Below are positions 1-48,200 of a DNA stretch of 64,000 nt, one piece after another. Both the position numbers and the translations under genes were made by a program. The notes beneath the pieces are model-generated. The model was not told where the DNA came from, did not search any database, and saw only the letters and a list, made by a program, of their open reading frames with translations. The DNA is taken from contig JAZREU010000005.1 of assembly GCA_045660925.1 (NCBI GenBank), positions 2,334 to 66,333 on the forward strand, read 5' to 3'. Each line of letters opens with the position of its first letter. The stretch's first letter is position 1. Origin of the DNA: Paludibacteraceae bacterium (GTDB lineage Bacteria > Bacteroidota > Bacteroidia > Bacteroidales > Paludibacteraceae).

Positions 1-3000
1 CCCCTTCATCTACTCCACAAACGGTTGGCGAAGTGCAAGGTATTACTATTATTGCTGAGACAAAAGAAGGTTATACTTTTGCAAATTGGACTTCCTCTAA
101 TGGAGGTAAATTTGATGATGACAGAGCAGAAAAAACTGATTTCTACCCAACAGCAGCAACTACTGTCACCGCGAATTTCACAGAAAACTTACACACTATT
201 GCCGTACAAACCAGCAACAACGAACATGGTACCGTTTCCCCTGCTTCTGTCGAAGTAGGTGTAGCCACCACGACCGAGATAACCGCTACACCAAATGCAG
301 GTTATATGTTTGATAAATGGATGGTAGCAGGCGGTGCTTCTGTAGCAGACCCAACAAGCGCCAAGACTACCGTCACCGCAACGGCGGAGGGAAGTGTTAC
401 GGCATACTTCAAGGAGATACCTCCTACCACCATCTACTTCAAGCCCAACGACGACTGGAAAAAGGACAACGCCAACTTTGCTATCAACTATTGGAACAAC
501 TCCACCAGTGGTTTTGCAGACATGACCGAGCTGGATTGCGAAGGCAACTACTATGTGGGACAAGTGCCTACGGGCTTCACCGACATGAAAATCCAACGCG
601 TACAAGTTGACTCAACTACCAAATACTACATCACTGGTAGTAGCGACCTCGTCGGTCAGGCGAAAGCATGGAAAGAAACTGCCGTAGAAATGACCTACGA
701 TGCCAACGAGACGGCATTCACCTACACTTTCAGCAACTTAGCACCTGGCATCACCTACAAGATGAAACTCACAAACGGTTCGTGGGCGAATGCATGGGGG
801 CACAATGCCCTAAAAAACTCATCAGCCAATATCACAAGCGACAATGACAATAATATTGTCTTCAAACTCCCATACGGTGGCGATGTGGTGGTGAAATTCG
901 ACGGAACCAATGTAACTATTTCTGGCTTTTTTGTAAAAGACGACGCTACCCCACAAAAATATGGCTCCGCAGTACCAGGACAATGCCATGATGTCATGCT
1001 GCAAGGCTTCTATTGGGATTCTAACCAAGACAAATACTATGGCAATACCCGTTGGAGTACTTTGCAAAGTGAAGCAGCAGACATTTCCACCTACTTCGAC
1101 CTGCTATGGTTGCCACCATCAGCTATGTCGTCAGGTGGCGTAGGCTATCACCCTAAGCAATATAGCAACCAAAACAGCGATTGGGGTTCGCGCAAGGACT
1201 TAGAAAAACTCATCTCTATGCTCCATGCTGGTGGCACCAAAGTGGTGGCAGATATGGTGGTCAATCATATGGACACCAAGAGCAGTTGGTGCGACTTCTT
1301 CGATCAAGACTTTGGCGAATATGGCTATTTCCAACCCGATGGTAGCTATATCTGTAATAACGACGAAATGAACTGGGATGCCGATGAGGGCTGTCGCGGA
1401 ACCGCTACTGGTTCTTACGACGATGGCTATGGAGGCGAGTCTAACTACGGTGCTGCCCGCGACATGGCACACAACGACGAGAAAGTGCGTCAGATGTTCC
1501 GCGCATACGCCAAATGGATGGTGGATGTAATGAAGTACGATGGTTTCCGCTACGATTATGCCAAGGGATTCCACCTATCCCATGTGGATGACTACAATGC
1601 AAATGCGGGGGTATATTTCTCTGTCGTTGAGTTTTGGGAGAGCAATCCTAATACCCTATGGAACGCCATTTGCGATGCAAACCAAAACACCTACGCCTTC
1701 GACTTTGGTATGAAGTTTAATATCATGAATGGTGGTATCGCCAACTTTGACTATGCGAAGTGTAAGAACCCCAATGCTTTGATTGGTATAGGAAAAGGCA
1801 AGTGGGCAGTCAACTTTATCGACAACCACGACACCTTCGAACGCGATGATAATAGCTATGACTTCGGTGGTGATGCAATGCACCCTGATACGAAGGACCG
1901 TCTCTTGCAAGCCCATGCGTATATGCTCTCTATGCCTGGTGTGCCTTGTGTGTTCTACCCATATTGGAAGACATACAAAGATGCTATTGCACCAATGGTG
2001 CTTGCCCGCAAGGCAGTAGGCGTACACTCCGAGAGTGCTGTGAGTGATGAGATTGTGGGTAATGGTTATCGTGCCTATGTCACAGGTACAAAAGGTATGC
2101 TACTCCTCGAATTAGGTGCCGCAGTGGATGGTTTAGGTTCATACTATGGCTATCGCGAAGTAGCAGCAGGTCCTGGATACAAGATGTTTATCACCTACGA
2201 AGCAGCTGGAGCAGAACTCACCGTCAGCCCTCAGTCCACCTACTATCGTTCTCAAACCATGAGCGTAACGATGAACGCAGTAGGTCTGGCGGGTGTACCT
2301 GACATCTATTACACCGTGGATGGTACAGACCCACGCACATCAGCAAGCAAGAAGAAATATACGGGTGCAATCAGCATTTCGGGCACAGTGACCATTAAGG
2401 CATATGCAGAGATACACGACAACCAAACTGCCGTACAAACCCATACATACACCTACTATCCACCGCAAGAAGAACCACTTACTGTGCGCTTCTTGCCTCC
2501 AAACGATTGGTGGACATATGTTTATGCTTGGGATAAAAATGATAATAAACTATTGGGCAACTGGCCTGGTACTAAAATCGACCCTAATGCCAATGGATGG
2601 GTAGAGCACACTTTCGCAGCGGGCAAAAACCCTGTGAATGTGATCTTCCATAATAATGTAGGAGCGCAATCCCACGATATTGTTTTAGAGGAAGACGCAT
2701 GCTACATATGGAATAGTTCATTAGGCGATGCCGTACTGACCAACGAATGCAACATCCCAGATGGTGATTCCTTCACACCTGCTGATCCAGAACAAGGCAA
2801 CACGCCTAAATTGCTCTTGGACGAAACTCTCACACTATCCGTGCCACAAGACGACAAGAATCTCTATGACATGGACTCGAAGAATATCACCCATTTGTAT
2901 CTGTCGCCTAATAGCAACTGGAAATCTGATGGTGCACGCTTTGCTGCATACTTCTTTGGCAATGGCGACACATGGGTTAGCATGACCGATGAGAATTCCG

Positions 3001-6000
3001 ATGGAATATACGAATGTGTAATCCCTACTGCGAAATCATATCCAAGTGTTATTTTCTGCCGCATGAATGGTAATACAAGTACCAATAACTGGGACAACAA
3101 ATGGGATCAAACAAACAACTTGACGGTGCCAACAGACGGAAAGAATCGCTATACTATTGCGGAGGGAGCATGGAGCTACGGAAACGGCTCTTGGTCCACT
3201 ATCTACGACGATAGCAAATGGACTACTTTCACGGCGCCTACATATTCCGTTACAATCAATATTACAGGTTACGGATCTATCGAGATTGATGGCGTAACAT
3301 ATACCAACGATAGCGAAGATAAGGGCACTTATTCTGCGCCAAACATTACGCTCAACGAGCTGATGCAAATCGGAGCAATCACACCTGCCAACGAGTGGAC
3401 TTACGGCGTGACACCTACTATAATAATAGGTTCGCGCACGCACGAGGTAGCAGAGAACACCTCTTATACCATCTGCGGAACAACAATAATCGATATTATT
3501 TTCAGTCCATCCATCTGTAACGTGGTCTTCGACCTAAACTTGCCACAAGGCGTTCCTACCCCACTCTGGTCGGTGGATAACCAACGCGTTACACCAGGTG
3601 AGAAAATAAAAGCACCTCAGTTGGGCGAACTGCAAGGCTACTTCTTTGGCGGATGGTACACCCACGCTACCGACTTTAGTAATAAAAACCAATACGACTT
3701 CAGCATGGTGGTTACCAAACCGCTTACGCTCTATGCCCGTTGGCTCAAATACGAGGATTGCATCTTCTTCAAGAACAACCTCGGTTGGGAGAGTGTATAT
3801 GCTTACTTCTACAACTCAGATAAGTATTGGGACGACACCAAAGGTACGGGTTCGCAAAAACTCAAAACCTTCCCTCAAGACAACGACGCGGAGCACAAAC
3901 CACACTGGTTTGAGTTCCAAGGCGAGCTGAGCAATATCCCAGAAACCGACATCTGGTATCTGGACTTTATTGCTATGGCAATAGCAGTGGATAACTCCAA
4001 CTGGGGCGAGATTACGGGCTACACCAACATCAGCTTCACCGAGCACAAGCAATACGACTACGAGTTCTTCTATCAGACATCAGTCGTTCGCCGTGGTGAC
4101 TTCAATCGAAACATGTCGCTCTTCATCCCTGAAGTAGGACAAGAACCTACCATGCGCAACGAATCCAAGTACTACAACGACGGTCTGTGGCTGAAATACA
4201 ACTCCATCGAATCGGGCTATAACTGGAGAGGTAGCGCCAACAGTTGGTCAACCAGTGCCAATGCCTTCACAGCAGACAAAGCAGGCGGCTATACCTTCAC
4301 CTCTTTAGTTCAACTAACAGGTGGTACAGACTATGAATTCAAGATATTTGGTAACAACACTTGGTTCGGCAACACAGGCACCATGACTGAAGACAACTGC
4401 ACCAACTGGCCTTTTACCAATAAAGAAAGTACCAACGCCAAGATTCACCCAACCGCTACGGGCGACTATATCTTCACCATCTATGTGGGCGACGGTAAAA
4501 TGATGGTTAGTCTGGAGTATCCTTTGAGCGTAGGCGATTATCGACTTGCATACAAAGACAATACAGCGGGTTCGTTCCACCCAAGTCACTATATCAAAAA
4601 GCGCAACGAGGGACAAAACGATACCATCAGCTTCTTCGTTCATCACGACAAGCGACCTGAGATTATTGTTCAGCAGTGTAGTGCTATTGCCAATGATGGT
4701 ACAGCCACATGGAAGACCCTCGATATCGGCAATATCAACCCTGCTGCGGGTATTACAGAAACAGGTGTATATAATTTCTATTTACAGCAAATACAAGGAC
4801 AAACAAATCCAAGACTGTTGGCTCAAACGCAGCCATACACTGGCAACTTCTACATCCGTACCGAATCAGCTGATGGAGGATGGAAATTCTTCCGTCAATC
4901 CTCTAACCTCATGACATACAATAGTTATGCCGACAACAACGAGAACTTCGACCACTACTTCTGTAAGTATGTTAAAACTGCAGACCGCAATGTGGCCTTC
5001 GTAGTAGCCAACGACTATAGCTATTGCATCTCCGACACCTTGACCGCAGACCCTGCAGGAGCCGTACAGATTGTTAATGCTCAAGGTCAATTGCCAGAGA
5101 ATGCCAATGTCCGCTTCGCGTGGGACAGCAAGACCAACGAACTCAGCCGCGCATACTTGGCTGGTGCCAACAACGAGACACAAAACACCTTCCTCCACAT
5201 CATAGACGCAGAGGCTCTAAAGAATACCGACGGAGAGGCAGTGACAGATGTGCCGTTCATTGACTTGCAAAACTGGATCTATCAAACAGAGGTCAAGGTA
5301 ACCAAAGAAACCCTCATCAAACTAGTAGCGGAATACGATGGCAAGACACAGTACTTCAAAGGAGGAGAAAGTACAACAGATAAAATCCATTTGATTTCAT
5401 CCACAGCTAATAGCGAATATAAATTGCGATTAATCTATAACTTCAAATGCAATCACCTTGTTGCTGCAGTTGTATTAGAAGGCGACAAGGAAATTACAGA
5501 AGACGATGTTTTAGGTGCGGACCTAATGGTTGTTCGTAAAGACCAAGGTCAGGCAGAGCAACTTACATTCAATCCTAATGCAAAGAAATTGGACAAAGTA
5601 GGTACTGCCTATGCCGTGATGACCTTCACAAGAGACCATATTACGAATAGGAGTTTAACATCTCGCGAGCGCAGTCTCTATTGGGTATCCTTCCCATTTG
5701 ATGTGAAGATTGCGGATGTCTTCGGTTTTGGCGAATACGCAGAACATTGGATTATGCAATACTACGATGGCGCAGAGCGTGCTGCAAGGGGATTGTTTAT
5801 CGATTCGGGTACCTATTGGAAGTATATCACAGATACCAAAACAACCTTACAGGCTGGTGTCGGTTATGTGCTTGCACTGGATTTGGATAAACTAACCTTT
5901 CCACACAATGTGAATGATGTTAGTCTCTACTTCCCATCTACCGACACTGTGGAAACAATATCTGGCGTACTACCTACTGCGCACAAAGTACCTGCACACG

Positions 6001-6890
6001 AATGTACCATTGACCGCGAGTTTGAGGACAATGGAACCACATACAACCACAAGTTCACCGACTCACACTGGAACCTCATCGGCGTGCCAGGTTTTGCAGA
6101 TATCAACGATTTCAATGTGACAGACTACCACTTCATGCAAGACGATGCAAGTTTCTACTACAATTTCTCACTTGCAGAGAGTACCTATGAAGTAGAATCC
6201 AGTGCCACTAATTTCCAAGCAATGTATGCCTACATGGTACAATTTGCTGGAGAAATCAACTGGATGTCGAAAACAGTAACAGGCGTTCAACCTAAAGAAC
6301 TCGCTGCCCGTCGCAATAGCGATAGCCAAGCAGAGAAACTTACACTCCGTTTAGAATTGGCGCAAGCAGGTGTGAAAGCCGACCAAACCTTCATCCAAAT
6401 GCAAGAAGAAGGCGCAAGCACTGATTTCGATTTGAGCAAAGACCTCACCAAGATTATCAATAAAGGAAGTAACATTTACACCCTTGTCGGCACGGACCGC
6501 ACCCAAGTGGCGGGAAATGTATTGCCTATGCAAGAGCAAATAGTTCCTGTAGGCGTTGTGGCAGCCGCTCAAGGCGAATACAGTTTCCGCATGCCAGACG
6601 GAACAGAGGGAATGGTAGTAGAACTTATTGACTACGAAAACAACACAACAACCAACCTCTTGCTGAGTGACTATACGGTAACGCTTTCTGAGGGTACATA
6701 CGAGCAGCGCTTTATGCTGCATATCCAACCAGAAAAATCGGGTGTTAGTACCAATACGGAGCAAATCACGGGGGGAGAGCTTAATACCAACAGCGTGCAG
6801 AAGTTCATCATTGATGGACATCTCTACCTCAGGAAAGACGGAATTATTTACGATGCACAAGGTCGCCCACTTAGCCTTCATTCACGTTGA
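1..6890 (+). CDS. Very large secreted multidomain GH13 alpha-amylase; 5' end runs off the window
   Basis: ORF track 33..6890. The frame stays open back to base 3, so the true start lies upstream. GH13 conserved regions are readable in the translation: DMVVNHM (I), GFRYDYAKGF (II), VVEFWE (III), NFIDNHDT (IV). Listeria-Bacteroides (InlB B-type) repeats are present (GYTFANWTSSNGG, GYMFDKWMVAGG, GYFFGGWYTH). There are aromatic-rich starch-binding-like modules (NDWWTYVYAWDKNDNKLLGNWPG). About 1000 aa of C-terminal sequence is unassigned and ends in KFIIDGHLYLRKDGIIYDAQGRPL. Confidence 0.85.
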   Translation, partial: PSSTPQTVGEVQGITIIAETKEGYTFANWTSSNGGKFDDDRAEKTDFYPTAATTVTANFTENLHTIAVQTSNNEHGTVSPASVEVGVATTTEITATPNAGYMFDKWMVAGGASVADPTSAKTTVTATAEGSVTAYFKEIPPTTIYFKPNDDWKKDNANFAINYWNNSTSGFADMTELDCEGNYYVGQVPTGFTDMKIQRVQVDSTTKYYITGSSDLVGQAKAWKETAVEMTYDANETAFTYTFSNLAPGITYKMKLTNGSWANAWGHNALKNSSANITSDNDNNIVFKLPYGGDVVVKFDGTNVTISGFFVKDDATPQKYGSAVPGQCHDVMLQGFYWDSNQDKYYGNTRWSTLQSEAADISTYFDLLWLPPSAMSSGGVGYHPKQYSNQNSDWGSRKDLEKLISMLHAGGTKVVADMVVNHMDTKSSWCDFFDQDFGEYGYFQPDGSYICNNDEMNWDADEGCRGTATGSYDDGYGGESNYGAARDMAHNDEKVRQMFRAYAKWMVDVMKYDGFRYDYAKGFHLSHVDDYNANAGVYFSVVEFWESNPNTLWNAICDANQNTYAFDFGMKFNIMNGGIANFDYAKCKNPNALIGIGKGKWAVNFIDNHDTFERDDNSYDFGGDAMHPDTKDRLLQAHAYMLSMPGVPCVFYPYWKTYKDAIAPMVLARKAVGVHSESAVSDEIVGNGYRAYVTGTKGMLLLELGAAVDGLGSYYGYREVAAGPGYKMFITYEAAGAELTVSPQSTYYRSQTMSVTMNAVGLAGVPDIYYTVDGTDPRTSASKKKYTGAISISGTVTIKAYAEIHDNQTAVQTHTYTYYPPQEEPLTVRFLPPNDWWTYVYAWDKNDNKLLGNWPGTKIDPNANGWVEHTFAAGKNPVNVIFHNNVGAQSHDIVLEEDACYIWNSSLGDAVLTNECNIPDGDSFTPADPEQGNTPKLLLDETLTLSVPQDDKNLYDMDSKNITHLYLSPNSNWKSDGARFAAYFFGNGDTWVSMTDENSDGIYECVIPTAKSYPSVIFCRMNGNTSTNNWDNKWDQTNNLTVPTDGKNRYTIAEGAWSYGNGSWSTIYDDSKWTTFTAPTYSVTINITGYGSIEIDGVTYTNDSEDKGTYSAPNITLNELMQIGAITPANEWTYGVTPTIIIGSRTHEVAENTSYTICGTTIIDIIFSPSICNVVFDLNLPQGVPTPLWSVDNQRVTPGEKIKAPQLGELQGYFFGGWYTHATDFSNKNQYDFSMVVTKPLTLYARWLKYEDCIFFKNNLGWESVYAYFYNSDKYWDDTKGTGSQKLKTFPQDNDAEHKPHWFEFQGELSNIPETDIWYLDFIAMAIAVDNSNWGEITGYTNISFTEHKQYDYEFFYQTSVVRRGDFNRNMSLFIPEVGQEPTMRNESKYYNDGLWLKYNSIESGYNWRGSANSWSTSANAFTADKAGGYTFTSLVQLTGGTDYEFKIFGNNTWFGNTGTMTEDNCTNWPFTNKESTNAKIHPTATGDYIFTIYVGDGKMMVSLEYPLSVGDYRLAYKDNTAGSFHPSHYIKKRNEGQNDTISFFVHHDKRPEIIVQQCSAIANDGTATWKTLDIGNINPAAGITETGVYNFYLQQIQGQTNPRLLAQTQPYTGNFYIRTESADGGWKFFRQSSNLMTYNSYADNNENFDHYFCKYVKTADRNVAFVVANDYSYCISDTLTADPAGAVQIVNAQGQLPENANVRFAWDSKTNELSRAYLAGANNETQNTFLHIIDAEALKNTDGEAVTDVPFIDLQNWIYQTEVKVTKETLIKLVAEYDGKTQYFKGGESTTDKIHLISSTANSEYKLRLIYNFKCNHLVAAVVLEGDKEITEDDVLGADLMVVRKDQGQAEQLTFNPNAKKLDKVGTAYAVMTFTRDHITNRSLTSRERSLYWVSFPFDVKIADVFGFGEYAEHWIMQYYDGAERAARGLFIDSGTYWKYITDTKTTLQAGVGYVLALDLDKLTFPHNVNDVSLYFPSTDTVETISGVLPTAHKVPAHECTIDREFEDNGTTYNHKFTDSHWNLIGVPGFADINDFNVTDYHFMQDDASFYYNFSLAESTYEVESSATNFQAMYAYMVQFAGEINWMSKTVTGVQPKELAARRNSDSQAEKLTLRLELAQAGVKADQTFIQMQEEGASTDFDLSKDLTKIINKGSNIYTLVGTDRTQVAGNVLPMQEQIVPVGVVAAAQGEYSFRMPDGTEGMVVELIDYENNTTTNLLLSDYTVTLSEGTYEQRFMLHIQPEKSGVSTNTEQITGGELNTNSVQKFIIDGHLYLRKDGIIYDAQGRPLSLHSR

Positions 6891-7058: not shown

Positions 7059-7113
7059 CATACACGCACCACACAATAACCGCACTATAACCAGACAATA
7101 ACCACACTATTTT
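7059..7113. repeat. Five tandem degenerate 11-bp units
   Basis: Units: catacacgcac cacacaataac cgcactataac cagacaataac cacactatttt. The word is close to that of the array at 40794-40848 (acgcactatac). Confidence 0.8.
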
Positions 7114-7154
7114 GCGCAGTCATAGAACCCCGCGAGAAGATGAAGATATAAAAA

Positions 7155-7178
7155 GAGGGCTGCCTCTCAGCAGCCCTC
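7155..7178 (-). terminator. Intrinsic terminator oriented for the minus strand (downstream of the susD 3' cassette); possibly bidirectional
   Basis: 9-bp stem GAGGGCTGC / GCAGCCCTC with loop CTCTCA. On the minus strand it is followed by TTTTTAT, and an A-run sits on the other side. It resembles the susD terminator at 13787-13809 (AGGGCTGC...GCAG.CCT.TTTTT). Confidence 0.7.
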
Positions 7179-7227
7179 CAAGTATATTTAGAGTAATTCT
7201 AAACTACTTTATTGGGTTGAACAATGA

Positions 7228-7614
7228 TTACCAACCTGGGTTTTGAGTGAGATTTGGATTCAAATCGATTTGACCTTGTGGGATAGGAGCCAAATAATGT
7301 TTCTCCTCAAACACACGGTGATCAGCTGTGCGGCACTCAATGTATCCATGATCACCCTCAGTCAATACAACGCTATTGAGATCTACGTTCCAAGCTTCAG
7401 CTGACTCGATCCAAGCACCTTGAGTTTGCTCTGGATACTTTTGAGTATCGAGCTTATCCAATTGGTGCCAACGGATGAGTGACCAGTAGCGGTCGTTGAG
7501 GTCGAACATCAACTCTACACGACGCTCACGACGAACTTCCCATACGAGGTCACTTACCTCTGTACCACCATTGAGTTCTGCTGCATTGTTTGCAGGGTCG
7601 TTTTTATACGGCAA
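7228..7614 (-). pseudogene. Promoterless 3' fragment (about the last 125 codons) of a second SusD-family gene, inverted relative to the intact susD
   Basis: The translation SDLVWEVRRERRVELMFDLNDRYWSLIRWHQLDKLDTQKYPEQTQGAWIE...HYLAPIPQGQIDLNPNLTQNPGW aligns with the C-terminus of the 12051..13763 product. There is no signal peptide and no N-terminal 450 aa. Homology stops at about 7614, next to the recombinase stop codon (7629). Confidence 0.85.
7466..7498. repeat. Left copy of a 33-bp perfect long-range inverted repeat (partner 13496-13528)
   Basis: The reverse complement of 7466-7498 is CAACGACCGCTACTGGTCACTCATCCGTTGGCA, identical to 13496-13528. The flanking ~30-40 nt on each side are similar but carry synonymous mismatches. 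Confidence 0.9.
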
Positions 7615-7619
7615 TACAA
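7596..7619. repeat. IR-L of a perfect 24-bp inverted repeat pair (partner 8422-8445)
   Basis: The plus strand reads GGTCGTTTTTATACGGCAATACAA, the exact reverse complement of 8422-8445. Confidence 0.95.
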
Positions 7620-7628
7620 TAGGTATAT

Positions 7629-8240
7629 TTATCGTTTTTCGTCTATAAAAGCATAATAGTAATTACGCACAGTATCACGATTAACTTGCAACAAATCAGC
7701 TATTTTCTGAAATGACATTCCGTTTGCTCTCAGCCTTGCTATTTGTTGTTCTTTACCATGTAGTTTGTAACTGCTTTTACTAAACGACCTACCACGAGGT
7801 CTTCCCAATTGCACTCCTTCGGCTTTTTTTATAGCTAAAGCTTCTTTCGTTCTTTGACTAATCAAGTTTCGCTCAATCTCTGCTGATAAACCAAAAGCAA
7901 ATGCAAGTACTTTACTTTGTATATCATCCCCCAACCTGTAATTATCTTTGATAGTCCATACACGACATTCCTTAGTCATGCAAATATTGAGTATCTCCAT
8001 GATCATAAATAAGTTTCTACCGAGGCGTGATAATTCACTACAAATAATGATGTCATTCTTCCTTACTTTTCGAAGAAGATTCCCCAATTGACGAGTTGAA
8101 TAGTTTTTGGTTCCACTAATGGTTTCTTCAATCCAATCATCAATTCTGAGTTGTTGTTTTTCACAAAAACTGTTAATCTCAAAACGTTGGTTTTCTACCG
8201 TCTGTTTGTCGCTACTGACTCTAATATATCCGTAAATCAT
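7629..8240 (-). CDS. Small serine recombinase, DNA-invertase/resolvase type (203 aa)
   Basis: N-terminal catalytic motif MIYGYIRVSSDKQ. C-terminal helix-turn-helix GMSFQKIADLLQVNRDTVRNY. The size and domain order match Hin/Gin/Mpi-type invertases. Confidence 0.9.
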   Translation of the reverse strand: MIYGYIRVSSDKQTVENQRFEINSFCEKQQLRIDDWIEETISGTKNYSTRQLGNLLRKVRKNDIIICSELSRLGRNLFMIMEILNICMTKECRVWTIKDNYRLGDDIQSKVLAFAFGLSAEIERNLISQRTKEALAIKKAEGVQLGRPRGRSFSKSSYKLHGKEQQIARLRANGMSFQKIADLLQVNRDTVRNYYYAFIDEKR

Positions 8241-8367
8241 AACTTAGTAATTTTATTTTACAAATAAGACAATTGACATCATGATTATCTAAAAATATGT
8301 TGTTAAACATATATTTTGCTATTGCAAATAAAATAATTATTTTTTTTCATTTTTTTTGTGATAATTA

Positions 8368-8399
8368 TTTGTTGGTATTAAAAAAAAGTACTAACTTTG
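8368..8399 (+). promoter_or_regulatory. Bacteroidetes sigma-A type promoter facing susC
   Basis: TTTG (8368-8371), 20 nt, TAACTTTG (8392-8399). It lies inside the IR-bounded segment, and IR-R follows about 15 nt after the predicted start site. Confidence 0.7.
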
Positions 8400-8421
8400 T
8401 AGTCGGAATTAGTGTGAGCAG

Positions 8422-8445
8422 TTGTATTGCCGTATAAAAACGACC
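8422..8445. repeat. IR-R of the perfect 24-bp inverted repeat pair
   Basis: TTGTATTGCCGTATAAAAACGACC in the susC 5' leader. Confidence 0.95.
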
Positions 8446-8594
8446 GATTTTAACAAGCGGTCTGTGTACATTGAGGCACACGCACGCGCATATTATTAAG
8501 GTGCTCATTGCCGAGAAGAAAAACAAACTAACAACAAACAATAAAAACAACGTGGGTGAAACTCCCACATAGTATTAACTAAAAAACACACGTT

Positions 8595-11500
8595 ATGATG
8601 AACAAACACAAAGAGAATGGCTTTCGTAGCCTACTCATGACATTCGCAGTATTTGCAATGTCGTTGGTTAGCATCAGTGCTATGGCAGCACCTATTTCAG
8701 TAGTAGGTAAAGTAGTAGATGCTAATGGTGAACCTCTTGTTGGTGCCAGCGTTGTAGAAGCAGGTACTGCCAATGGTACAATTACCGATTTGGACGGTGC
8801 TTTCGTTCTCAACGTAGAGCCAAACGTGACCCTCGTAATTTCTTACGTAGGTTACAAAGATCAAGAAGCTCGCGCTCACAAGGACATGGTTGTTATGCTC
8901 CGCGAGGACACTCAAATCCTTGACGAGGTAGTAGCCATCGGTTATGGTACACAAAAGAAGGCGAACCTGACTGGTGCGGTAACAACCGTAGATGTTTCTA
9001 AAACCCTTGAGTCTAAAACCGAGTCTGATGTGGCTAAAGCCCTTCAAGGTGCTGTGCCAGGTTTGACTATCACCAACGCAACTGGTGACTTGGACGCAGA
9101 CCCAACCGTAGTTATCCGTGGTATTGGTACATTGTCTAACAGTGGTACATCTACTCCTCTCTACATTGTGGACGGTGTGCCAGTAGAGAACTTGGGTTAC
9201 CTCAACTCTAACGACATTGAGTCTATCTCTGTATTGAAGGATGCTTCTTCTACCGCTATCTACGGTACACGTGCAGCCTTCGGTGTGGTATTGGTAACTA
9301 CCAAAACCGCAAAGACCGCAGAGAAAGTAACTGTTACTTACAACAACAACTTCGCATGGAGTCGTGCTACTGCTTCTCCAGATTACCCAACTGTATATGA
9401 GCAAGCAGTTGCTATGACCGAGGCTAAGGGTTATCTTGGTGAGCGTGCAGAGCTCTTTGGTATGTATGTAGATGAAGAGGCTTATCAAACTAAGGCACAA
9501 GAATGGCTCGAATGGGCAAAAACTCAAGGTTGGAAGAATAACAAGTCTCCTTATCGAGAGATGGTGTATGGTTTGGACTATGACGAGAATGGTTTCTACG
9601 CAGACTGGGATGTAGCAGGTATCTTCTTCAACGAGGCTACTCCTTCGCAAAACCACAACCTTTCTATTTCTGGTAACTCTGGTAAGACCAACTACTATAT
9701 GTCTCTTGGTTACAACCACCAACAAGGTATCTTGAACTTCAATCCTGATAAGATGGATAAGTTCAATGCTACAATCAATCTCTCTACCAAAGTAAACAAC
9801 TGGTTAGAAGTTGGTGCTCGTTTCAACATGCAACACCGCAACTATCAATATCCAGAAAACCGCGTAGGTGGTTACTCTAACCTCTGGCGTTGGGGTTCAT
9901 TCTTCGGCCCTTGGGGATATCTCCAAGACGAGGAAGGTCAAATATATGATGGCTATACATTCCTTGGTGGTTTGAAAGAGGCTGGCGAAGCTTACAAAAA
10001 GCGTATGAACATGCGCGCTGGTGGTTTTATCAAGTTAACCCTTGCTAAGGGCCTCACCTTCAATGGTGATTATACCTTCACTTATCGCGCTGGCAACGAG
10101 AAAGCTATCGGTATGCCTGCTAAATATCAAGTAGATACATGGAGCCCTGGTCTGTTTAAAGAAGACTGGAGTGGTGCAATTGCTCCTTATCCAACAGATA
10201 GCTACCTCACCCAAACTAATTCACACTACTACAACCATGTGGCTAACATGTTCTTGAATTACAACGGTTCTTGGAGCGATCACAACCTCAACGTAATGGT
10301 AGGTGCAAACATCGATAAGAGCGATTATCAATACCTCACCCTTACTCGTAAAGACTTGCAAGATCTCAACTTGCCAGAGATGATTCTCACCTCAGATTAT
10401 AAGACCTTTAGCCAAGCACACAGCCATAGTGGTTCTGCTGGTATCTTCGCTCGTATCAACTACGACTACAAGGGTATCTACCTCCTCGAGTTGAGCGGAC
10501 GCTACGACGGTTCAAGCAAGTTCCCAACTCACACACAATGGGCATTCTTCCCATCTGGTTCTGTAGGTTATCGTATCAGCGAGGAAGCTTACTTCGCAGA
10601 GGCTAAGAATTATGTTAGCAACTTGAAACTCCGCGCTTCTTATGGTGTGATCGGTAACCAAGAAATTGGTAGTAACATGTTCCTCGAGACCATGACAAAG
10701 TATCCAAATGGTGTAAACTGGCTTGGTTCTGGTGATGTGAAATTCGACTATTTCGGTCAACCAGACATGGTATCTCCTGCTCTTACTTGGGAGAGTATCG
10801 CAACTACCAACGTAGGTATTGACCTTGGTTTCTTCAACAACGATTTGAATGTAAACTTCGATTGGTATCAACGTGTAACTGACGGTATGTTGGCTCCTGG
10901 TAACCCATTGCCATCTATAATCGGTGCTGAAGCAGCATTTGAGAACACTGGTCAGTTGCGTACACGCGGATGGGAGTTGAACCTTGACTGGCGCCACGTA
11001 TTCCATGAGGCTGGCGACTTGGCAGTTCACGCTAACTTCAACCTTGCTGATTACAAGGCTACTATCACACAATGGGAATTGCTTGGTAATGATGATGAGA
11101 ATAAGAAATATGTCAATGACAGATATTCTGGTAAAGAGTATGGCGAAATTTGGGGATTCCAAACAGAACGCTACTTTACTCCAGATGACTTCAATGCAGA
11201 TGGTAGTTACAAGCAAGTACTTGACGCTGATGGCAACTTTGTTTCAGGTACTGCTGATCAAACCTTGCTCGAAGTAGATCCTAAGTTTGACTTCGGTCCT
11301 GGTGATATCAAGTTTGTTGACCAAAACGGCGATGGTAAGATTGATTGGGGTAAAGGTACTACCGATGATCATGGCGATCTCGTGAAGATTGGTAACACCA
11401 CTCCACGTTGGCAATACTCATTCCGTCTCGGTGCTGAATGGAAAGGTATTGACTTCGACATCTTCTTCCAAGGTGTAGGAAAACGCGAAATGTGGAGTAC

Positions 11501-11978
11501 TTCTGCGTTCGTAATGCCTATGATGCGTGCTGCAGACGTAACCATCTATGCTAACCAAACTGATTACATTACTAAAGAGGAAATTGAGGCTGGTAACATC
11601 CGTCAAGATGCTGACTATCCACGTATTTTCCCAGGAAACGAGAAGGCTACTTCTGCAGGTTCTTTAATTATGGATGCAGGTTCAAACAACTACGTTCCTC
11701 AAGATAAGTATTTGATCAACATGGCTTATCTCCGTCTGAAGAACTTGACCGTTGGTTACACCTTGCCACAAAAGTGGACTCGTAAAGCAACTATTGAGAA
11801 AGTACGTTTCTATGCTTCTTTCAGCAACTTGGCTGACCTTATCAACCATACTGCTAAGTACGGCTTCGACCCTGAGGTTTCAAGAGGTAAAGAAGGTGCT
11901 AATTATGGCAACGGAGCATACGCTCGTACTACACCTCTCATGCGTTCGTATTCATTCGGTTTGCAAGTAACCCTATAA
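8595..11978 (+). CDS. susC: SusC/RagA-family TonB-dependent outer-membrane transporter
   Basis: Signal peptide present. Carboxypeptidase-regulatory-like domain (VVDANGEPLVGASVVEAGTANGTITDLDGAF). SusC signature DEVVAIGYGTQKKANLTGAV. 1127 aa, immediately followed by a SusD-family gene. Confidence 0.92.
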   Translation: MMNKHKENGFRSLLMTFAVFAMSLVSISAMAAPISVVGKVVDANGEPLVGASVVEAGTANGTITDLDGAFVLNVEPNVTLVISYVGYKDQEARAHKDMVVMLREDTQILDEVVAIGYGTQKKANLTGAVTTVDVSKTLESKTESDVAKALQGAVPGLTITNATGDLDADPTVVIRGIGTLSNSGTSTPLYIVDGVPVENLGYLNSNDIESISVLKDASSTAIYGTRAAFGVVLVTTKTAKTAEKVTVTYNNNFAWSRATASPDYPTVYEQAVAMTEAKGYLGERAELFGMYVDEEAYQTKAQEWLEWAKTQGWKNNKSPYREMVYGLDYDENGFYADWDVAGIFFNEATPSQNHNLSISGNSGKTNYYMSLGYNHQQGILNFNPDKMDKFNATINLSTKVNNWLEVGARFNMQHRNYQYPENRVGGYSNLWRWGSFFGPWGYLQDEEGQIYDGYTFLGGLKEAGEAYKKRMNMRAGGFIKLTLAKGLTFNGDYTFTYRAGNEKAIGMPAKYQVDTWSPGLFKEDWSGAIAPYPTDSYLTQTNSHYYNHVANMFLNYNGSWSDHNLNVMVGANIDKSDYQYLTLTRKDLQDLNLPEMILTSDYKTFSQAHSHSGSAGIFARINYDYKGIYLLELSGRYDGSSKFPTHTQWAFFPSGSVGYRISEEAYFAEAKNYVSNLKLRASYGVIGNQEIGSNMFLETMTKYPNGVNWLGSGDVKFDYFGQPDMVSPALTWESIATTNVGIDLGFFNNDLNVNFDWYQRVTDGMLAPGNPLPSIIGAEAAFENTGQLRTRGWELNLDWRHVFHEAGDLAVHANFNLADYKATITQWELLGNDDENKKYVNDRYSGKEYGEIWGFQTERYFTPDDFNADGSYKQVLDADGNFVSGTADQTLLEVDPKFDFGPGDIKFVDQNGDGKIDWGKGTTDDHGDLVKIGNTTPRWQYSFRLGAEWKGIDFDIFFQGVGKREMWSTSAFVMPMMRAADVTIYANQTDYITKEEIEAGNIRQDADYPRIFPGNEKATSAGSLIMDAGSNNYVPQDKYLINMAYLRLKNLTVGYTLPQKWTRKATIEKVRFYASFSNLADLINHTAKYGFDPEVSRGKEGANYGNGAYARTTPLMRSYSFGLQVTL

Positions 11979-12050
11979 TTAATGTTTAGGAAACAGATGA
12001 ATAAATATTAATTATACTATTATTAACTATTGACTAAATTGAATACAGTT

Positions 12051-13763
12051 ATGAAAAAGATAATTTTAAGTTTGATGGCTGGTATGGTACTCTTCACAAG
12101 TTGCGACTTGTTGAATAATAATCCAGATGATTCTTTTACCAAAGATAACTTCTTTACCAGCGAAACCAACGTAGAAATGTACACCAACTCTTTCTACAGC
12201 GAATGGAGTGGTTATGGAAACAATGGTACTTACGGAACTTTCTATTTCCCAACCCTTAATGACAACCAAGCGGTTACTGGTATCACTACTTGGGATTTCA
12301 TTACTATTCCACCTTCAGATGGAACATGGGATGCAAGTTATGCAGAAATTCGTCGTGCAAATATCCTGCTTGAGAATATAGACAAAGTGGATATGCCAGC
12401 AGCGTCAGTAGCATACTATACATCTTTGGCACGTCTTTATCGCGCATGGCAACACTTCTGCGTAGTTCGCAAGTTCGGTGATTGCTATTATGTAGATCGT
12501 TCTCTTACTACTGAGGACAAAGATATTCTCTATGGTCCACGTCAAAATCGCAACGATGTAATGGACAAGATGCTCGAAGACCTCAACTACGCAGTAGAAA
12601 ACATGGGCGACAAGAACGCTGATTCTCGTACAGCTTACAACGTATATGTTGCTAATGCAATTAAAGCACAAATCTGTCTCTTTGAGGGTACTTACGTTAA
12701 ATATCACCAAAATGAAGGTGATAACAACGACCGCTCAAGTCTGTATTTAAAAGAGGCTAAAGCAGCCGCTGAGGCTATCATCCAATCAGGCAAATTTGCT
12801 TTGACCCCAGGTGCTGAGGGTTACCGTGCTAACTACAACTCTCTTGAACTCGCTGGCAATACAGAGATGATTATGTACAAGAACTATGTACAAAACGTTC
12901 TTCGCCACGCTACCCAAGACTACTGCTGTGGTTCTACCCCAACCAATGGTATGAGTAAGTCTGCTTTCAATGCTTACTTGTTGAAGAACGGTAAATTAGC
13001 CGATCCTAACGATGACAAGGGTGTTTTGGGCACCGAAGGTTATGATGCTGGTAAGCCAGTTATCTATCACCTCCTCGAGGCACGTGACCCACGTTTGGCT
13101 CAAACCATTGACGGATACCTCTGCTACGTAGGTAACAACCGCGCTCGCTATGAGGGTGTTCCAGAACAAGAAGGTGCTGCTGAAAATACGGTGACTACTG
13201 GTTATGGTATCTTGAAATTTGACGAGCCTGTTACTCCATCTTCACTTCGTCAATCTACAACAGGTAACGTGACTGACTGCCCACTCTTCTGGTATGCAGA
13301 AATTCTGCTCACCCACGCAGAAGCTTGCGCAGAACTCGGTGAAGATGGTGATGCAATCGCATCCCTCAATGAGGTACGTGCCCGCGTGGAGATGCCAAAC
13401 TACGAGCCATTGAACGATCCTAATAACAACCACGGAGTTCGCGATCTCATTTGGGAAATCCGTCGCGAGCGTCGTGTGGAGTTGATGTTCGATAACAACG
13501 ACCGCTACTGGTCACTCATCCGTTGGCATCAATTGGATAAACTTGATACTGAGAACTATCCAGAACAAACTCTCGGTGCTTGGATTGAGAAGGGTTGGCC
13601 TGTAGGTGAAGGTTTGAAACTCACCAATGGTGATCATGGCTACATTGACCTGCGCGACACATACGTTCGCAAGTTTGAGGATAAGCATTATCTCGCTCCT
13701 ATCCCATCAGAGCAAATTGATTTGAACCCAGAGATCGGACAAAACGATGGTTGGATCAACTAA
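12051..13763 (+). CDS. susD: SusD/RagB-family surface lipoprotein
   Basis: The ORF track gives 12030..13763. The likely start is the ATG at 12051, giving the lipoprotein signal MKKIILSLMAGMVLFTSC. The C-terminal motif RRERRVELMFDNNDRYWSLIRW is typical of SusD. Confidence 0.9.
   Translation: MKKIILSLMAGMVLFTSCDLLNNNPDDSFTKDNFFTSETNVEMYTNSFYSEWSGYGNNGTYGTFYFPTLNDNQAVTGITTWDFITIPPSDGTWDASYAEIRRANILLENIDKVDMPAASVAYYTSLARLYRAWQHFCVVRKFGDCYYVDRSLTTEDKDILYGPRQNRNDVMDKMLEDLNYAVENMGDKNADSRTAYNVYVANAIKAQICLFEGTYVKYHQNEGDNNDRSSLYLKEAKAAAEAIIQSGKFALTPGAEGYRANYNSLELAGNTEMIMYKNYVQNVLRHATQDYCCGSTPTNGMSKSAFNAYLLKNGKLADPNDDKGVLGTEGYDAGKPVIYHLLEARDPRLAQTIDGYLCYVGNNRARYEGVPEQEGAAENTVTTGYGILKFDEPVTPSSLRQSTTGNVTDCPLFWYAEILLTHAEACAELGEDGDAIASLNEVRARVEMPNYEPLNDPNNNHGVRDLIWEIRRERRVELMFDNNDRYWSLIRWHQLDKLDTENYPEQTLGAWIEKGWPVGEGLKLTNGDHGYIDLRDTYVRKFEDKHYLAPIPSEQIDLNPEIGQNDGWIN
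13496..13528. repeat. Right copy of the 33-bp long-range inverted repeat, inside susD
   Basis: CAACGACCGCTACTGGTCACTCATCCGTTGGCA, encoding NDRYWSLIRW. Confidence 0.9.
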
Positions 13764-13786
13764 TCCTTTCGGATAATAATAGAAAA

Positions 13787-13809
13787 GGGCTGCTTCGGCA
13801 GTCCTTTTT
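13787..13809 (+). terminator. Intrinsic terminator of susC-susD
   Basis: GGGCTGC, TTCG tetraloop, GCAGTCC, then TTTTT. Confidence 0.75.
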
Positions 13810-26136: not shown

Positions 26137-26760
26137 TTATTTAGTAATAATTTGCGCTAGTTGTTCTTGGTATCTTTTAACCTCGGGGTCATTGATTTTC
26201 ACGAGTTTTAATGCTTGATTAAAGACCCGTGGCTCACCCACACTATATTTGGTCTCCGTATATATCCATGCCATAAATCGCCTTCCGCCTATCATATTTT
26301 TATTAATTAAATCCAATGCAATCAATGCATGGATAAATTTTGCAGTTTTCGCATAATTGATTGTCTTTTTATTAGGAGCAGGCAGTGCTATAGATTTTAG
26401 CATTTCAACAATTTCCTTTTCGTGCTCCTTTGCAGCGCCAATAAGCGGCGATTTAAATTCATAAATTATCTGTTCCTCTTTTTCATTCTCTTTATTTATG
26501 ATATAATTATATATCACAATTGTCAGGAAGACAATAAAGAGAATTATGAACACACCAAATAGTGTATTAAGAAAGGGATTGAATCCTGGGAATAAAGAAG
26601 AAAGTTCAAGACCATCATCTGAAAAATGAAGACTCATCAGTTCTGCTATTATTATTGTAAATGCAAAGGCTGCAATAGCAAAAAGCGCAGCACAAACCCA
26701 CCAAAACAGTTTGTTTAATTTTGGGTCGTTTATTCGGAAATAGTTTTTGCGTTTAGTCAT
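26137..26760 (-). CDS. Hypothetical membrane protein (207 aa, two TM helices plus a soluble C-terminal domain)
   Basis: TM segments LFWWVCAALFAIAAFAFTIIIAEL and LFGVFIILFIVFLTIVIYNYII. Lies 32 nt downstream of the PLD-like gene. Confidence 0.6.
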   Translation of the reverse strand: MTKRKNYFRINDPKLNKLFWWVCAALFAIAAFAFTIIIAELMSLHFSDDGLELSSLFPGFNPFLNTLFGVFIILFIVFLTIVIYNYIINKENEKEEQIIYEFKSPLIGAAKEHEKEIVEMLKSIALPAPNKKTINYAKTAKFIHALIALDLINKNMIGGRRFMAWIYTETKYSVGEPRVFNQALKLVKINDPEVKRYQEQLAQIITK

Positions 26761-45248: not shown

Positions 45249-48200
45249 CTATCGAGTCAGCATCAACTTGATATTGATACCAATGTTATCTGCCTTTATT
45301 GGATAAGAAGAAGAAATCAGCGGTGTAGTACCTTGGTGATCGTAGAAGAGTTGCAAGTTGATCTTTTGTGACAGCACATAATCTGCACTCACCTTAATAC
45401 CAAAGACCTTGTTACCCGAACTGGCTTGAGTAATATCCTCTTCCACTTTACGCAGCAATGTTTTGATATCTTTGTAGCTTACATCCACATTCAACTTTAA
45501 GTCATTGCTTACTTTCTTTTGTGTACCTCTACCAGATTTAGTGATAAAGTTCAAATCCTTAATCGTGTAGCCAGCGCCTATCACAAACTCGTTGGTATGT
45601 CCTTCGGTGATTTGTACAGAAGTCACATTTAGAGAAATATTACGCTGTTTGCGATATTCCACCTTTGCAGACAATGAGTTTTTCATTGTCATATTTACGC
45701 CAATTAAGGGCGAGAATGTCTCTGATAGTGTAACAGAAGATATGTCATATGCCGATGATGGGATTGGATTGTCAGTTTCTACATCACGTATAAATCCTAA
45801 GTGCTTATTGCTCATATCACCAGCAGGCACCCATGTAGAATACGTGGAATAGCTCGCTATCGCATATTTACAAGTATATGCGTGTGTGAGGTTTACTGAT
45901 TTGAAATTATCTCGCATCCAAGGCAGTTTTCCCAAACCGTCGAAGGTTACGGACCAGTTAGGCAGTACCTGTAATAATCCCAAGAAAGGATTAAGACTGA
46001 CATGTTGCGCATCGCGTCCCGTATAAGCTGCTAAGAATGCAGGCACTAACACATCAGCCGTATTATTGCTGATTACACCATATTTACGATTGTATTTCTG
46101 CCCTGCCAAATCATTAGGAACAAAGCCTCGGTCGGGGTAGATAAGGTCATCGTATTGCGCCTGTATGCGATTTGTCAGCAGATCTCGATTTGTCAAGAAT
46201 TGTTGGAAGGTGGCAGATGAGAAATTGTCATCTGCATTACCTATTTTATGAAAGGCTGTAGCAATAGCCACTTGTGTAATATTGAACGAACCTGTCATAT
46301 TTTCTTGCAGATGCTCAAAAGAATAAATGACAGAGGAAGACTCTGCAGCATATCGTTTTCCATTCAGTTGAATCTTAAATCCAGGGAATGGTTCGAGGGA
46401 CAATTTGATATCCAAATCATTGGTTATTGAACGCGAAGCAGGTTGCACGACCGTAGTATCTCCAGATAGCCAACCATTCTCTTTGGCTTTTTCGACAAAG
46501 TCATTACCAAAGAATCCGAATGCAAAATCAAAGCCAGGAGCATAGAGGTCATTGTATCGAGTCTGCCCCATAAATCCTGCTTGTGGTGCGAATCCTGGTA
46601 GCGTAATGGAATTGGTGTTTCGATAGGTGACTTGCAGCTTACGTATCATCGTACCAAAATATGCAGCCATATCCATAGCAGTCTCGGCAGCAGAACGCTG
46701 GCTGGTATCTACCGTTCTGATAGTCAATGACAGATTTTCCACATTTTCCTTTGCGACTATAGTAGCTTGTGTGGAAGAAGTAGGTTTTACTTTTAGTTTT
46801 ATCTTTTTACCACTTTCTGTAACGGCGCTGACCTCTATAGACTCGCTACCCAATCGGTGATTAATCTCTTTTGCTTCGCCTGCCACCAACGTAACCGTTT
46901 CGGTATAGGTCTTAGCCCTGAATGGACGTTTGCGGGCCCGTTGGTTGAAGCGTTGCGAGAGTTGCTTCCAATACTTCGATTTGCCGTATAAGGTTTCGAA
47001 ATTGATACCAGCATCCGCCTGCCAAGCGCGTGTGCTGCTGACCACATTACCAAGGTTGGCCGTTTCTTGTGCTGACGATTGCACAGTACGATTCCAGTTG
47101 TAGGTAGCATTATAGGAAGCGTTTGCTGTGAGTGCCTCTATATAAGGGATACGATTGAATGGGATATTCCAAGAAGCCGAAAAGAGTTGCTGGTATGTAT
47201 AAGGTGATCCCCATGTAGCCAAACTACGTTGGATAGTATCTTTCCATGCCTCGTAATAATCATTCGTAAAGGCATAATCACGAATAATCTCTGGCGTATA
47301 GTATCCTTCATCCACCGTGGAGTTCATGGCCGTTTGGAAGGTGAACTTCATATTCTTAGTAAGGTCGTATTTGAAGTCGAAGTTGCGATCCCAGGTGAAG
47401 TCTTTGGAGAAAGTCAGATCCATATCCGCAGCGCCTGTTGCCTCCACACTGAAATCACGCATCTTCATGTGCGTATATGTTCGGTGCATATTGGTACTGA
47501 ATGCCCATGATTGTGGTAAGTAGTAGAAATTCATCTCCTTTAGGAGTTTCACCTTATCCACACCCTTCACATTCTTGAATGGTTCCCAAGGTGTCGGATT
47601 GAAATTATACGAATAGTTGAATGATCCTTTTTGGTCGCTGACAATATCTTGTTCTATTTCGGGGGTATGTTGATTTTGTTTGTTATAACTTGCAGATATA
47701 GAGAAATTGGCGGGGTCATAGAACATATTCTGCTTCTTAGAATGTATATCCACTTTCATATTTGCCACAGAGAAACTTGTCGTTTCCTGGACAGTATTCG
47801 CCATTTGCTTGATTGAGTCTTTTTCGATCTTTGTCTCGAAGTTGTCAAGCGTTTCGGACAACTTGATATCTGTATCCAACGGATCAAAGTCGGGCGATAA
47901 TGTCTCATTGGTATAAGAGACATACAATGGTATCTGCAGTTTCGCTTTCTCTGGGAATAAGCGTCCTGCTTCTAATGCTGCACTCACGGACAATTGATAG
48001 ATATTCTCCATATTGCGATCGAGCACATTTGACTCGATAGAGCCATATCCTGCTGTTTCTAATCTTCCTGCTACGTTTACTTGTGCGATATCACTCACAC
48101 TGAGTGCAGCATTTGCCATAGCAGCAACGCCACCTTGCTCATTAAACTCGCATAGTCGCAATTCATTGACCCAGACTTCTCCGCTTACCTCATGATCCGT

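Follow-up and report, generated by a model that had tools for sequence, protein, structure and literature searches.

A 5'-truncated susD fragment beside a predicted Mpi-type promoter switch at a susC-susD locus of a Paludibacteraceae bacterium

SusC and SusD are the main nutrient gates of Bacteroidota and frequent phage receptors, and variation of their exposed parts bears on diet use and phage escape. A locus on contig JAZREU010000005.1 of a Paludibacteraceae bacterium (assembly GCA_045660925.1) raises the question of whether such variation can extend to the 3' end of a susD gene. In the 64,000-nucleotide stretch analyzed here (positions 2,334 to 66,333 of the contig; the window), a fragment holding only the end of a susD gene lies in inverted orientation to a full-length susD, with an invertase gene, a promoter and susC between them. 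The initial annotation had proposed that this fragment (also called the cassette) is a silent C-terminal cassette, which a 6-kb inversion across a shared 33-bp core would fuse to the expressed susD. The explanation favored here, which we hold at about an even chance, is that the fragment is the truncated far arm of an Mpi promoter toggle and has been kept largely intact by short-tract recombination. Should the fragment be in use, it would represent the first case of 3'-end variation in a SusD; if it is unused, it would be a clear example of back-to-back paralogues mimicking a shufflon.

The invertase encoded between the two susD copies matched the Pfam Resolvase family (PF00239, 1e-32), followed by a C-terminal helix-turn-helix, and scored 325.4 bits against the NCBIfam equivalog NF009949, 'master DNA invertase Mpi family' (cut-off 272). 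Relatives of 72–89% identity were found at no fewer than 564 loci among GTDB species representatives, and the hosts of the family were Prevotella, Alloprevotella, Bacteroides, Alistipes, Rikenella and Paludibacteraceae. An exact-protein look-up of the window invertase returned no record, and hence neither further assemblies nor a flipped state. An 850-bp segment (7596–8445), which holds the invertase gene and, in the 180 bp upstream of it, the susC promoter, is bounded by a 24-bp perfect inverted repeat, of which the window contains no other copy (0 expected by chance); the initial annotation had not mentioned this repeat. The right site reads AAAAACG-AC-CGATTTT, a near-dyad centered on AC. 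The core of the repeat, GGTCGTT/AACGACC, lies at the same distances from the invertase in the related loci L006, L012, L040 and L050. Published Mpi-type repeats read ARACGTTCGTN and, in B. intestinalis, GTTCGTTTAA (PMC8375218). The window repeat agrees with ARACGTTCGT at 7 of 10 positions; between the L012 site GGTCGTTTAA and the B. intestinalis repeat, the agreement is 9 of 10. The site core WWWAAACGACC occurs four times in the window, with 0.41 expected; two of these matches, apart from the switch, lie in coding regions (26724–26734, minus strand; 55589–55599, plus strand).

As read from the sequence, a putative promoter of the form TTTG-20 nt-TAACTTTG is located 22 nt inside the right repeat and directed at susC. 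The -33/-7 promoter consensus of Bacteroidetes is well established. The -7 box and the A-tract were invariant in five aligned relatives. Since the promoter points to susC, the window is in the ON orientation, and the orientation was ON in all six assemblies of this module. As an indirect hint, 17 of the 80 genome contigs with invertase relatives (L012–L091) stop 13–96 nt past the invertase stop codon, a pattern that assembly breaks at an invertible or repeated site would produce. To judge from these features, the locus is an Mpi-type, Hin-like invertible promoter that drives susC-susD in its present orientation, and the 850-bp segment would be the part that flips. Homology to the invertase-less loci L172, L173 and L179 was observed to start at a small palindrome, AAATATGTTGTTAAACATAT (8288–8312), about 50 nt upstream of the invertase start; thus, the invertase gene and its 5' region behave like a single insertion/deletion unit.

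Like the Mpi invertible promoters of Bacteroides fragilis and B. intestinalis, whose recombinase belongs to the same NCBIfam equivalog family, the window has related short repeats (AAACGACCG and GGTCGTTT(T/A)(T/A)) around a promoter segment of a few hundred bp, and the switch governs surface structures. In contrast to those promoters, the invertase lies within its own segment, the target is a susC-susD operon and not a capsule locus, and in relatives of the window the segment sits between two divergent susCD operons. The textbook Hin/fljBA switch of Salmonella shares the combination of an invertase and an outward promoter in a segment of about 1 kb, the short inverted sites and the on/off control of downstream genes. 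It differs in its recombinase subfamily and sites; moreover, L040 and L056 carry a two-way toggle, and on the second side of the window switch only a susD 3' fragment is present. Invertible promoters and shufflons of SusC/SusD are known from Bacteroides, where tyrosine recombinases act and 5' ends are swapped, and Mpi-type serine invertases are known for capsule promoters. A limited literature search found no description of a self-contained Mpi switch at susCD with a truncated susD far arm. The locus is a variant in three ways, namely the Mpi gene inside its own switch, the susCD target and the conserved truncated susD far arm.

A second unusual feature, besides the invertase inside its own switch, is that the switch of relatives toggles two susCD operons. 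L040 and L056 carry a complete two-way switch (susD<-susC<-[invertase]->susC->susD). The repeat of L056 is perfect over 25 bp, and its two full susD genes have a 31-nt inverted block of 90% identity in common at their 3' ends; thus, a natural two-arm switch yields the same geometry as the core in the window. In the closest genome, L012, whose invertase is 89% identical, a second, degenerate susC leader with a start codon lies directly outside the left site, with nothing beyond. In L006–L009, the invertase-susC-susD module is located between metK and valS and has no far arm, and none of these closest same-module relatives (L006–L009, L012) carries a susD fragment. L172 and L173 lack the invertase but retain the promoter and a relic of the right site. 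On this comparison, the far arm has been lost repeatedly and in differing ways, with the window retaining its last 125 codons and the terminator. A separate 32-nt inverted repeat of 97% identity surrounds the whole invertase-susC-susD module of L006 (3867–3898 / 10449–10480), and likewise that of L007. Each arm in L006 contains an outward TAccTTTG promoter-like box, and the repeat could be a split palindromic intergenic promoter or the mark of a module insertion.

The fragment proved to be what the initial annotation had described, i.e., the last ~125 residues of a SusD. Its open reading frame (ORF), which is open and intact, covers only positions 205–297 of the 297 positions of the Pfam profile SusD_RagB. 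Neither a SusD-like_3 N-terminal domain nor a signal peptide was found in it, and so it does not qualify as a SusD/RagB lipoprotein. Homology to full-length susD begins at the N-D-P codons AAC GAC CCT (7602), which form the outer end of the left repeat (junction AAAAACGACC|CTGC), so that the left repeat arm overlaps the first codons of the fragment. Alignments upstream of this junction matched the inner repeat of the switch and not susD. The homology to full-length susD' starts at AAAACGACC, where full-length relatives natively read CAAAACGACCC (L094) or AATGACCC. By sequence comparison, this native N-D-P sequence is a near-copy of the left site and points in the same direction. An in-frame stop is located upstream of the fragment in both switch orientations, only four codons upstream when the segment is flipped; thus, no lipoprotein would be made from the fragment after flipping. 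An N-terminal extension of the fragment by the flip is excluded by the same stop. A fusion of invertase and SusD by frameshifting was also rejected, as no slippery site was found and L179, another locus with such a fragment, has no invertase.

According to the favored explanation, the ancestor would have carried a two-way switch (susD'<-susC'<-[switch]->susC->susD), the far arm of which was then shortened by susC' and by ~450 codons at the start of susD'. The breakpoint would lie on the crossover motif of the invertase, where the N-D-P codons of the family natively read AA(C/T)GACC and share the direction of the left site, and a deletion between the left site and this N-D-P pseudo-site would give exactly the hybrid site that is present. 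Afterwards, the fragment would have been preserved mainly by continuing short-tract homologous recombination (100–300 nt). This would shuffle tail segments among the susD alleles of the clade, so that stretches of the fragment would recently have been part of working genes. A flip of the switch would turn susCD off and let the promoter be read into the fragment. Two paralogous operons lying back to back, together with family-wide conservation, would be enough to give the 33-bp core, the inverted geometry, the homology in frame and the matching terminator, and no dedicated 6-kb inversion system is required.

The inverted block on which such a 6-kb inversion would depend was verified. A repeat finder returned two arms of 147 nt with 86% identity; the perfect core of 33 bp was confirmed base by base, as were the synonymous changes in its flanks. 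Further homologous inverted stretches were found at 7231–7312 / 13673–13754 and 7337–7356 / 13629–13648. A simulated core-to-core inversion yielded an in-frame SusD of 571 amino acids with the cassette tail and a terminator in place, as had been predicted. This geometry speaks for a working silent C-terminal cassette, in which the tail would be exchanged across the conserved block and the cassette would owe its integrity to selection on the expressed state. The exchange could proceed by a RecA-dependent 6-kb inversion, by action of the Mpi invertase on AACG-AC-CG at the 5' edge of the core, or by non-reciprocal gene conversion. We regard the silent cassette with these routes as rather unlikely.

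The special status that the initial annotation had implied for the core was not upheld. The same 147-nt block was taken from every homologue in hand, and between-genome pairs showed 82–90% identity with longest perfect runs of 14–44 bp. For example, perfect runs of 32 bp were found for the window susD and L009, 44 bp for the cassette and L011, and 32 bp for the cassette and L001. Thus, the similarity within the genome (86%, 33 bp) falls in the between-genome range and is not exceptional, and the equal conservation among other SusD copies that the annotation had named as evidence against its own proposal was observed. The protein motif of the block, RRERRVELMFDxNDRYWSLIRWHQLDKLDT, does not vary in the family, and the block can still be recognized in the DNA of a homologue with an overall identity of only 35%. 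In the between-genome comparison, no dedicated crossover site conserved beyond coding needs was found at the core. The core opens with CAACGACCG and shares the central AACGACCG with the bona fide right switch site, in favor of the invertase route, but this motif is lost at synonymous sites in L179 (AACGATCG) and in L010 and L173 (AATGACCG). A stretch of 33 identical bp within 14% divergence is a poor RecA substrate, which counts against the inversion. Gene conversion between the cassette and the window susD left no signal at the two core-adjacent sites that differ from the closest orthologue, L005; at both, the window has the majority (ancestral) state. Recognizable invertase sites bracket only the 850-bp promoter segment, and a programmed 6-kb shufflon is unsupported.

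The tail of the cassette was found on working genes of other genomes. L092 carries a full-length susD, the last 331 nt of which are 90% identical to the cassette, while its body is 72% identical to the window SusD, and the cassette C-terminus is likewise carried by the intact genes P0164–P0180. The cassette tail with its downstream flank was found on full-length susD' of L092, L093 and L173. Among 226 full-length relatives sampled, none of 119 window-type bodies (at least 80% identity) had a cassette tail (above 60%), and none of 30 cassette-like tails sat on a body more than 74% identical to the window SusD; the power of this search for chimeras is low because the species is represented by one assembly. 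The comparison of relatives suggested by the initial annotation thus revealed two-arm switches and cassette-tailed susD genes, but no chimera of window body and cassette tail, which counts against the silent cassette within the limit of a single assembly.

Across the SusD family, body and tail histories are decoupled, which speaks for the silent cassette. The loop ESAEAWNVDLNSVVLTEGDH occurs on bodies that are 79–100% identical, and bodies of at least 97% identity carry either ESAEAWNVDLNSVVLTEGDH or EEGWPIELGSVTLTNGTY. The susD genes of L172 and L173 are 98–100% identical except for a tract of about 90 nt (L172 11509–11595) just past the conserved block, at the position equivalent to the hypervariable loop of the cassette. 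Both loci have the context rpsA-susC-susD-PagL, with neither invertase nor cassette within 10 kb. A dependence of susD variation on a local cassette was not found, as L172 and L173 exchanged the loop without one and only a single cassette is present here. The loop exchange without a cassette nearby, the presence of a single cassette and the module-bearing relatives that lack one weigh against the silent cassette.

DNA comparison revealed that the cassette is a mosaic of three parts. First, its head (7602 to ~7520) is closest to the L179 fragment. Second, 161 of 165 nt of the stretch 7338–7503 are identical to L092, with three differing codons, all synonymous. Third, 7228–7365 with the downstream flank to 7146 is 93–100% identical to the full-length gene of L093, with four differences, again all synonymous. 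The tracts of the cassette are 96–100% identical to full-length susD from other genomes, and their boundaries coincide with the 5' edge of the core and with a 20-nt element encoding GDHGYI (7337–7356); these are also the left and right edges of the L092-like tract. The near-identical tail tracts, their edges and the intact ORF speak for a silent cassette. The tract boundaries and the mosaicism argue for short-tract recombination between conserved flanks that is common in the clade and reaches the truncated copy. The sequence comparisons show the C-terminal loop of this SusD clade moving as a short, cassette-like tract, both between strains and into the fragment. The ratio of non-synonymous to synonymous divergence (dN/dS) proposed as a check was 0.12–0.28 for the cassette versus full-length relatives; functional genes give the same range against one another, and the ratio does not discriminate between the readings.

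Among the short SusD C-terminal ORFs examined, the only other true interior fragment was that of L179, a 1.3-kb contig from another organism. Its 133-amino-acid fragment begins at the same N-D-P codon and contains no stops or frameshifts. It is located directly 3' of a homologue of the switch promoter and a degenerate inner repeat, as would be expected for the window after flipping; however, the gene upstream is a DUF4293 gene, and an invertase is absent. The occurrence of the same constrained susD 3' fragment as far arm in two diverged lineages is the third unusual feature. Between the L179 and window fragments, dS was 0.76 and dN 0.07 in the conserved block, and dS was 0.87 and dN 0.44 in the tail. 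Other short ORFs were rejected as further cassettes: those of L001, L002, L010 and L011 start at contig ends, those of L174–L177 are frameshifted genes, and in L178 the gene caller had divided a full-length gene. L174–L177 stem from four independent read-set assemblies, in each of which several overlapping ORFs take the place of a related susC-susD pair; this reflects either a decaying polysaccharide utilization locus (PUL) or a recurrent assembly error.

Several observations on the two fragments weigh against the favored explanation. First, both share an insertion of nine codons (AAEINGGTD in L179, AAELNGGTE in the window), which replaces MG of full-length proteins and was present in none of the 226 full-length relatives. 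Likewise, no full-length SusD with the insertion was found among 436 proteins and 179 loci or in viral contigs, and none aligning over the insertion in a representative library of 1.84 billion. Second, of the changes between the fragments in the 15 head codons, 8 are synonymous and 2 are non-synonymous (Fisher p 8.5e-6). Outside the head, dS was ~0.8–1, and all indels were in frame. Moreover, all 7 codon differences of the cassette from its nearest full-length relatives are synonymous. The fragment is, on these counts, not decaying but under strong purifying selection in two diverged lineages. Third, L179 has no invertase, and its promoter homologue, which is a fixed copy of the one in the switch, is directed into the fragment. 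Since short-tract recombination cannot refresh a head that is specific to the fragment, the head needs an extra explanation. The favored explanation requires either an unsampled full-length lineage that bears the insertion, along with two truncations that struck one hotspot independently, or some selection acting directly on the fragment. Finally, it calls on a deletion, its catalysis by the invertase and the flipping of the switch, each of which we infer.

The shared head was joined in both fragments to a tail matching working genes elsewhere. P0285, a partial SusD of the full-length type (332 amino acids), has an L179-type tail and an ordinary head; thus, the exchange that joined head and tail occurred downstream of the head. 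Over most of its history, the head has been translated, either as part of a full-length lineage outside the sample, which would call for two truncations at one hotspot, or within the fragment. As the head never enters an expressed gene through a 6-kb inversion across the block, that inversion leaves its constraint at the protein level unexplained, which is a further point against the silent cassette. The initial annotation had also offered a decayed remnant of an ancestral inverted PUL, truncated on arrival of the invertase module. The truncated remnant gained ground from the junction on a crossover motif and the two-arm switches elsewhere, but 'decayed' was wrong, and the fragment may be in use as a partner in recombination. 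The decay of a relative's fragment, and the absence of the alternative C-terminus from intact susD genes, both named there as grounds for refutation, were not observed, as the L179 fragment is intact and the C-terminus is carried by L092 and P0164–P0180.

Three further explanations involve some use of the fragment. A retained functional module of the Mpi switch, as opposed to debris, is a tentative possibility: the fragment would travel with the invertase, be conserved across lineages at dS ~1 and have a defined junction on the recombinase site, and it might serve as a reservoir or alternative 3' end for the hypervariable SusD tail, or give a small product in the OFF state. More doubtful is a translated small gene for a SusD C-terminal protein of ~125–133 amino acids, made in the flipped state and constitutively in L179-like organisms. 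It would agree with purifying selection on the fragment-specific head and the block at dS ~0.8–1 with in-frame indels only, with the -33/-7 promoter ~45 nt upstream of the L179 ORF, the terminator after it and the lack of an invertase there, with the flip bringing the window promoter to 22 nt from the left site and ORF, and with a TTG or GTG codon retained 1–4 codons ahead of N-D-P in both fragments. However, an ATG start is absent from both fragments, and neither has a signal peptide or lipobox, which leaves a product without a route to the outer membrane. On its own, the last quarter of a SusD does not form a domain of the SusD fold, which also counts against a small gene. Furthermore, there are only two examples, the other short ORFs being contig-edge or frameshift artefacts, and the very different tails (dN 0.44) are odd for one conserved function.

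Very improbable is a swap of the whole C-terminal module by the invertase, which would recombine the left site with the N-D-P codons of susD (~13411–13418) and fuse the susD body to the entire fragment with its insertion. In favor of such a swap, the fragment starts exactly at an Mpi-type site and the two genes have their N-D-P codons in matching frame, and it would account for protein-level selection on the head with no need of a start codon or signal peptide. However, the expressed susD reads TTGAACGATCC at this position, with a putative center of AT instead of AC and nothing like the inner repeat, and mismatched central dinucleotides block exchange by serine recombinases. It is also disfavored by the insertion, which no full-length protein among the 226 relatives, the 436 proteins or the representative library carries, and by the ordinary head of P0285 on an L179-type tail.

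Known variation systems differ from the locus in instructive respects. The susC shufflons of Bacteroides (BT1040/1042/1046 of B. thetaiotaomicron, the Tsr0667 regions of B. fragilis) resemble the locus as programmed inversions that join parts of SusC/SusD loci anew to a single promoter. They use tyrosine recombinases, what they exchange at a short, defined site is the 5' end of susC-like genes, and polymerase chain reaction (PCR) has demonstrated the two arrangements. In contrast, the piece in the window is a susD 3' end, and its putative crossover is ordinary coding conservation. The G segments of phages Mu (Gin) and P1 (Cin), textbook cases in which a serine invertase swaps alternative 3' gene parts, are the nearest analogue of the proposed C-terminal shufflon. 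The segment of Mu encloses the alternative 3' ends but not the constant 5' part, and crossover takes place at dedicated gix sites, whereas in the window the 5' part, promoter and invertase would be inside, both 3' ends would be outside, and no dedicated site lies at the proposed crossover. As in pilE/pilS of Neisseria and vlsE of Borrelia, there is a promoterless, 5'-truncated but open copy, with conserved flanks around a variable segment and mosaic alleles. Unlike in those systems, a single inverted cassette lies beside a site-specific switch, and mosaics also occur in relatives without a nearby cassette.

The features of the locus are compiled in Table 1. The initial annotation had noted that the fragment has its own terminator resembling that of susD, which was confirmed: both were predicted, and alignment showed that they are homologous to each other. 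The fragment terminator is also homologous to those 3' of full-length susD' in L093 and L173, and in the window orientation it ends the invertase transcript as well.

Table 1. Features of the susC-susD locus and its promoter switch (window positions).
Feature	Position	Strand	Basis or remark
susD fragment ('cassette') terminator	7154..7179	-	terminator scan: 11-pair stem and T run
5'-truncated susD fragment ('cassette'), 128 codons	7228..7614	-	Pfam SusD_RagB, alignments
hypervariable loop ESAEAWNVDLNSVVLTEGDH of cassette	7357..7404	-	segment exchanged among alleles of this SusD clade
conserved block, left arm of 147-nt 86% inverted repeat	7405..7551	-	holds 33-bp core 7466-7498
left recombination site of promoter switch, GGTCGTTTTTATACGGCAATACAA	7596..7619	.	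24-bp perfect inverted repeat
Mpi-family serine invertase gene, 203 aa	7629..8240	-	Pfam and NCBIfam; inside predicted invertible segment
Bacteroidetes-type promoter, inside predicted invertible segment	8368..8399	+	-33 TTTG 8368-8371, -7 TAACTTTG 8392-8399
right recombination site of promoter switch	8422..8445	.	24-bp perfect inverted repeat
susC, SusC/RagA TonB-dependent transporter	8595..11978	+	Pfam; TIGR04056, 852 bits
full-length susD, 570 aa	12051..13763	+	Pfam SusD-like_3 and SusD_RagB; 100% match to P0044
conserved block in susD, right arm of inverted repeat	13443..13589	+	core 13496-13528
susD intrinsic terminator	13782..13809	+	12-pair stem

A search of the 64-kb window found no further susC or susD piece, and no known RNA families were found between 6000 and 15000. 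A TetR gene (Pfam) is also among the neighbors of the fragment. In the susC leader, a hairpin ACGTGGGTGAAACTCCCACAT (8550–8570) was invariant in all aligned relatives and partly retained in the degenerate second leader of L012; it had no Rfam match. Just past the fragment terminator, at 7068–7110, three 11-nt tandem units were observed (ACCACACAATA / ACCGCACTATA / ACCAGACAATA ...). The motif also occurs 3' of susD' in L001 and L093 and, in the opposite orientation, beside the L006 invertase. The window also contains two giant ORFs, at 33–6890 (plus strand, 2285 amino acids) and 45249–52700 (minus strand, 2483 amino acids). The former ends convergently ~340 nt from the fragment and, by eye, contains the GH13-like motifs GFRYDYAKG and FIDNHDT, from which the locus may be part of a starch-type utilization region.

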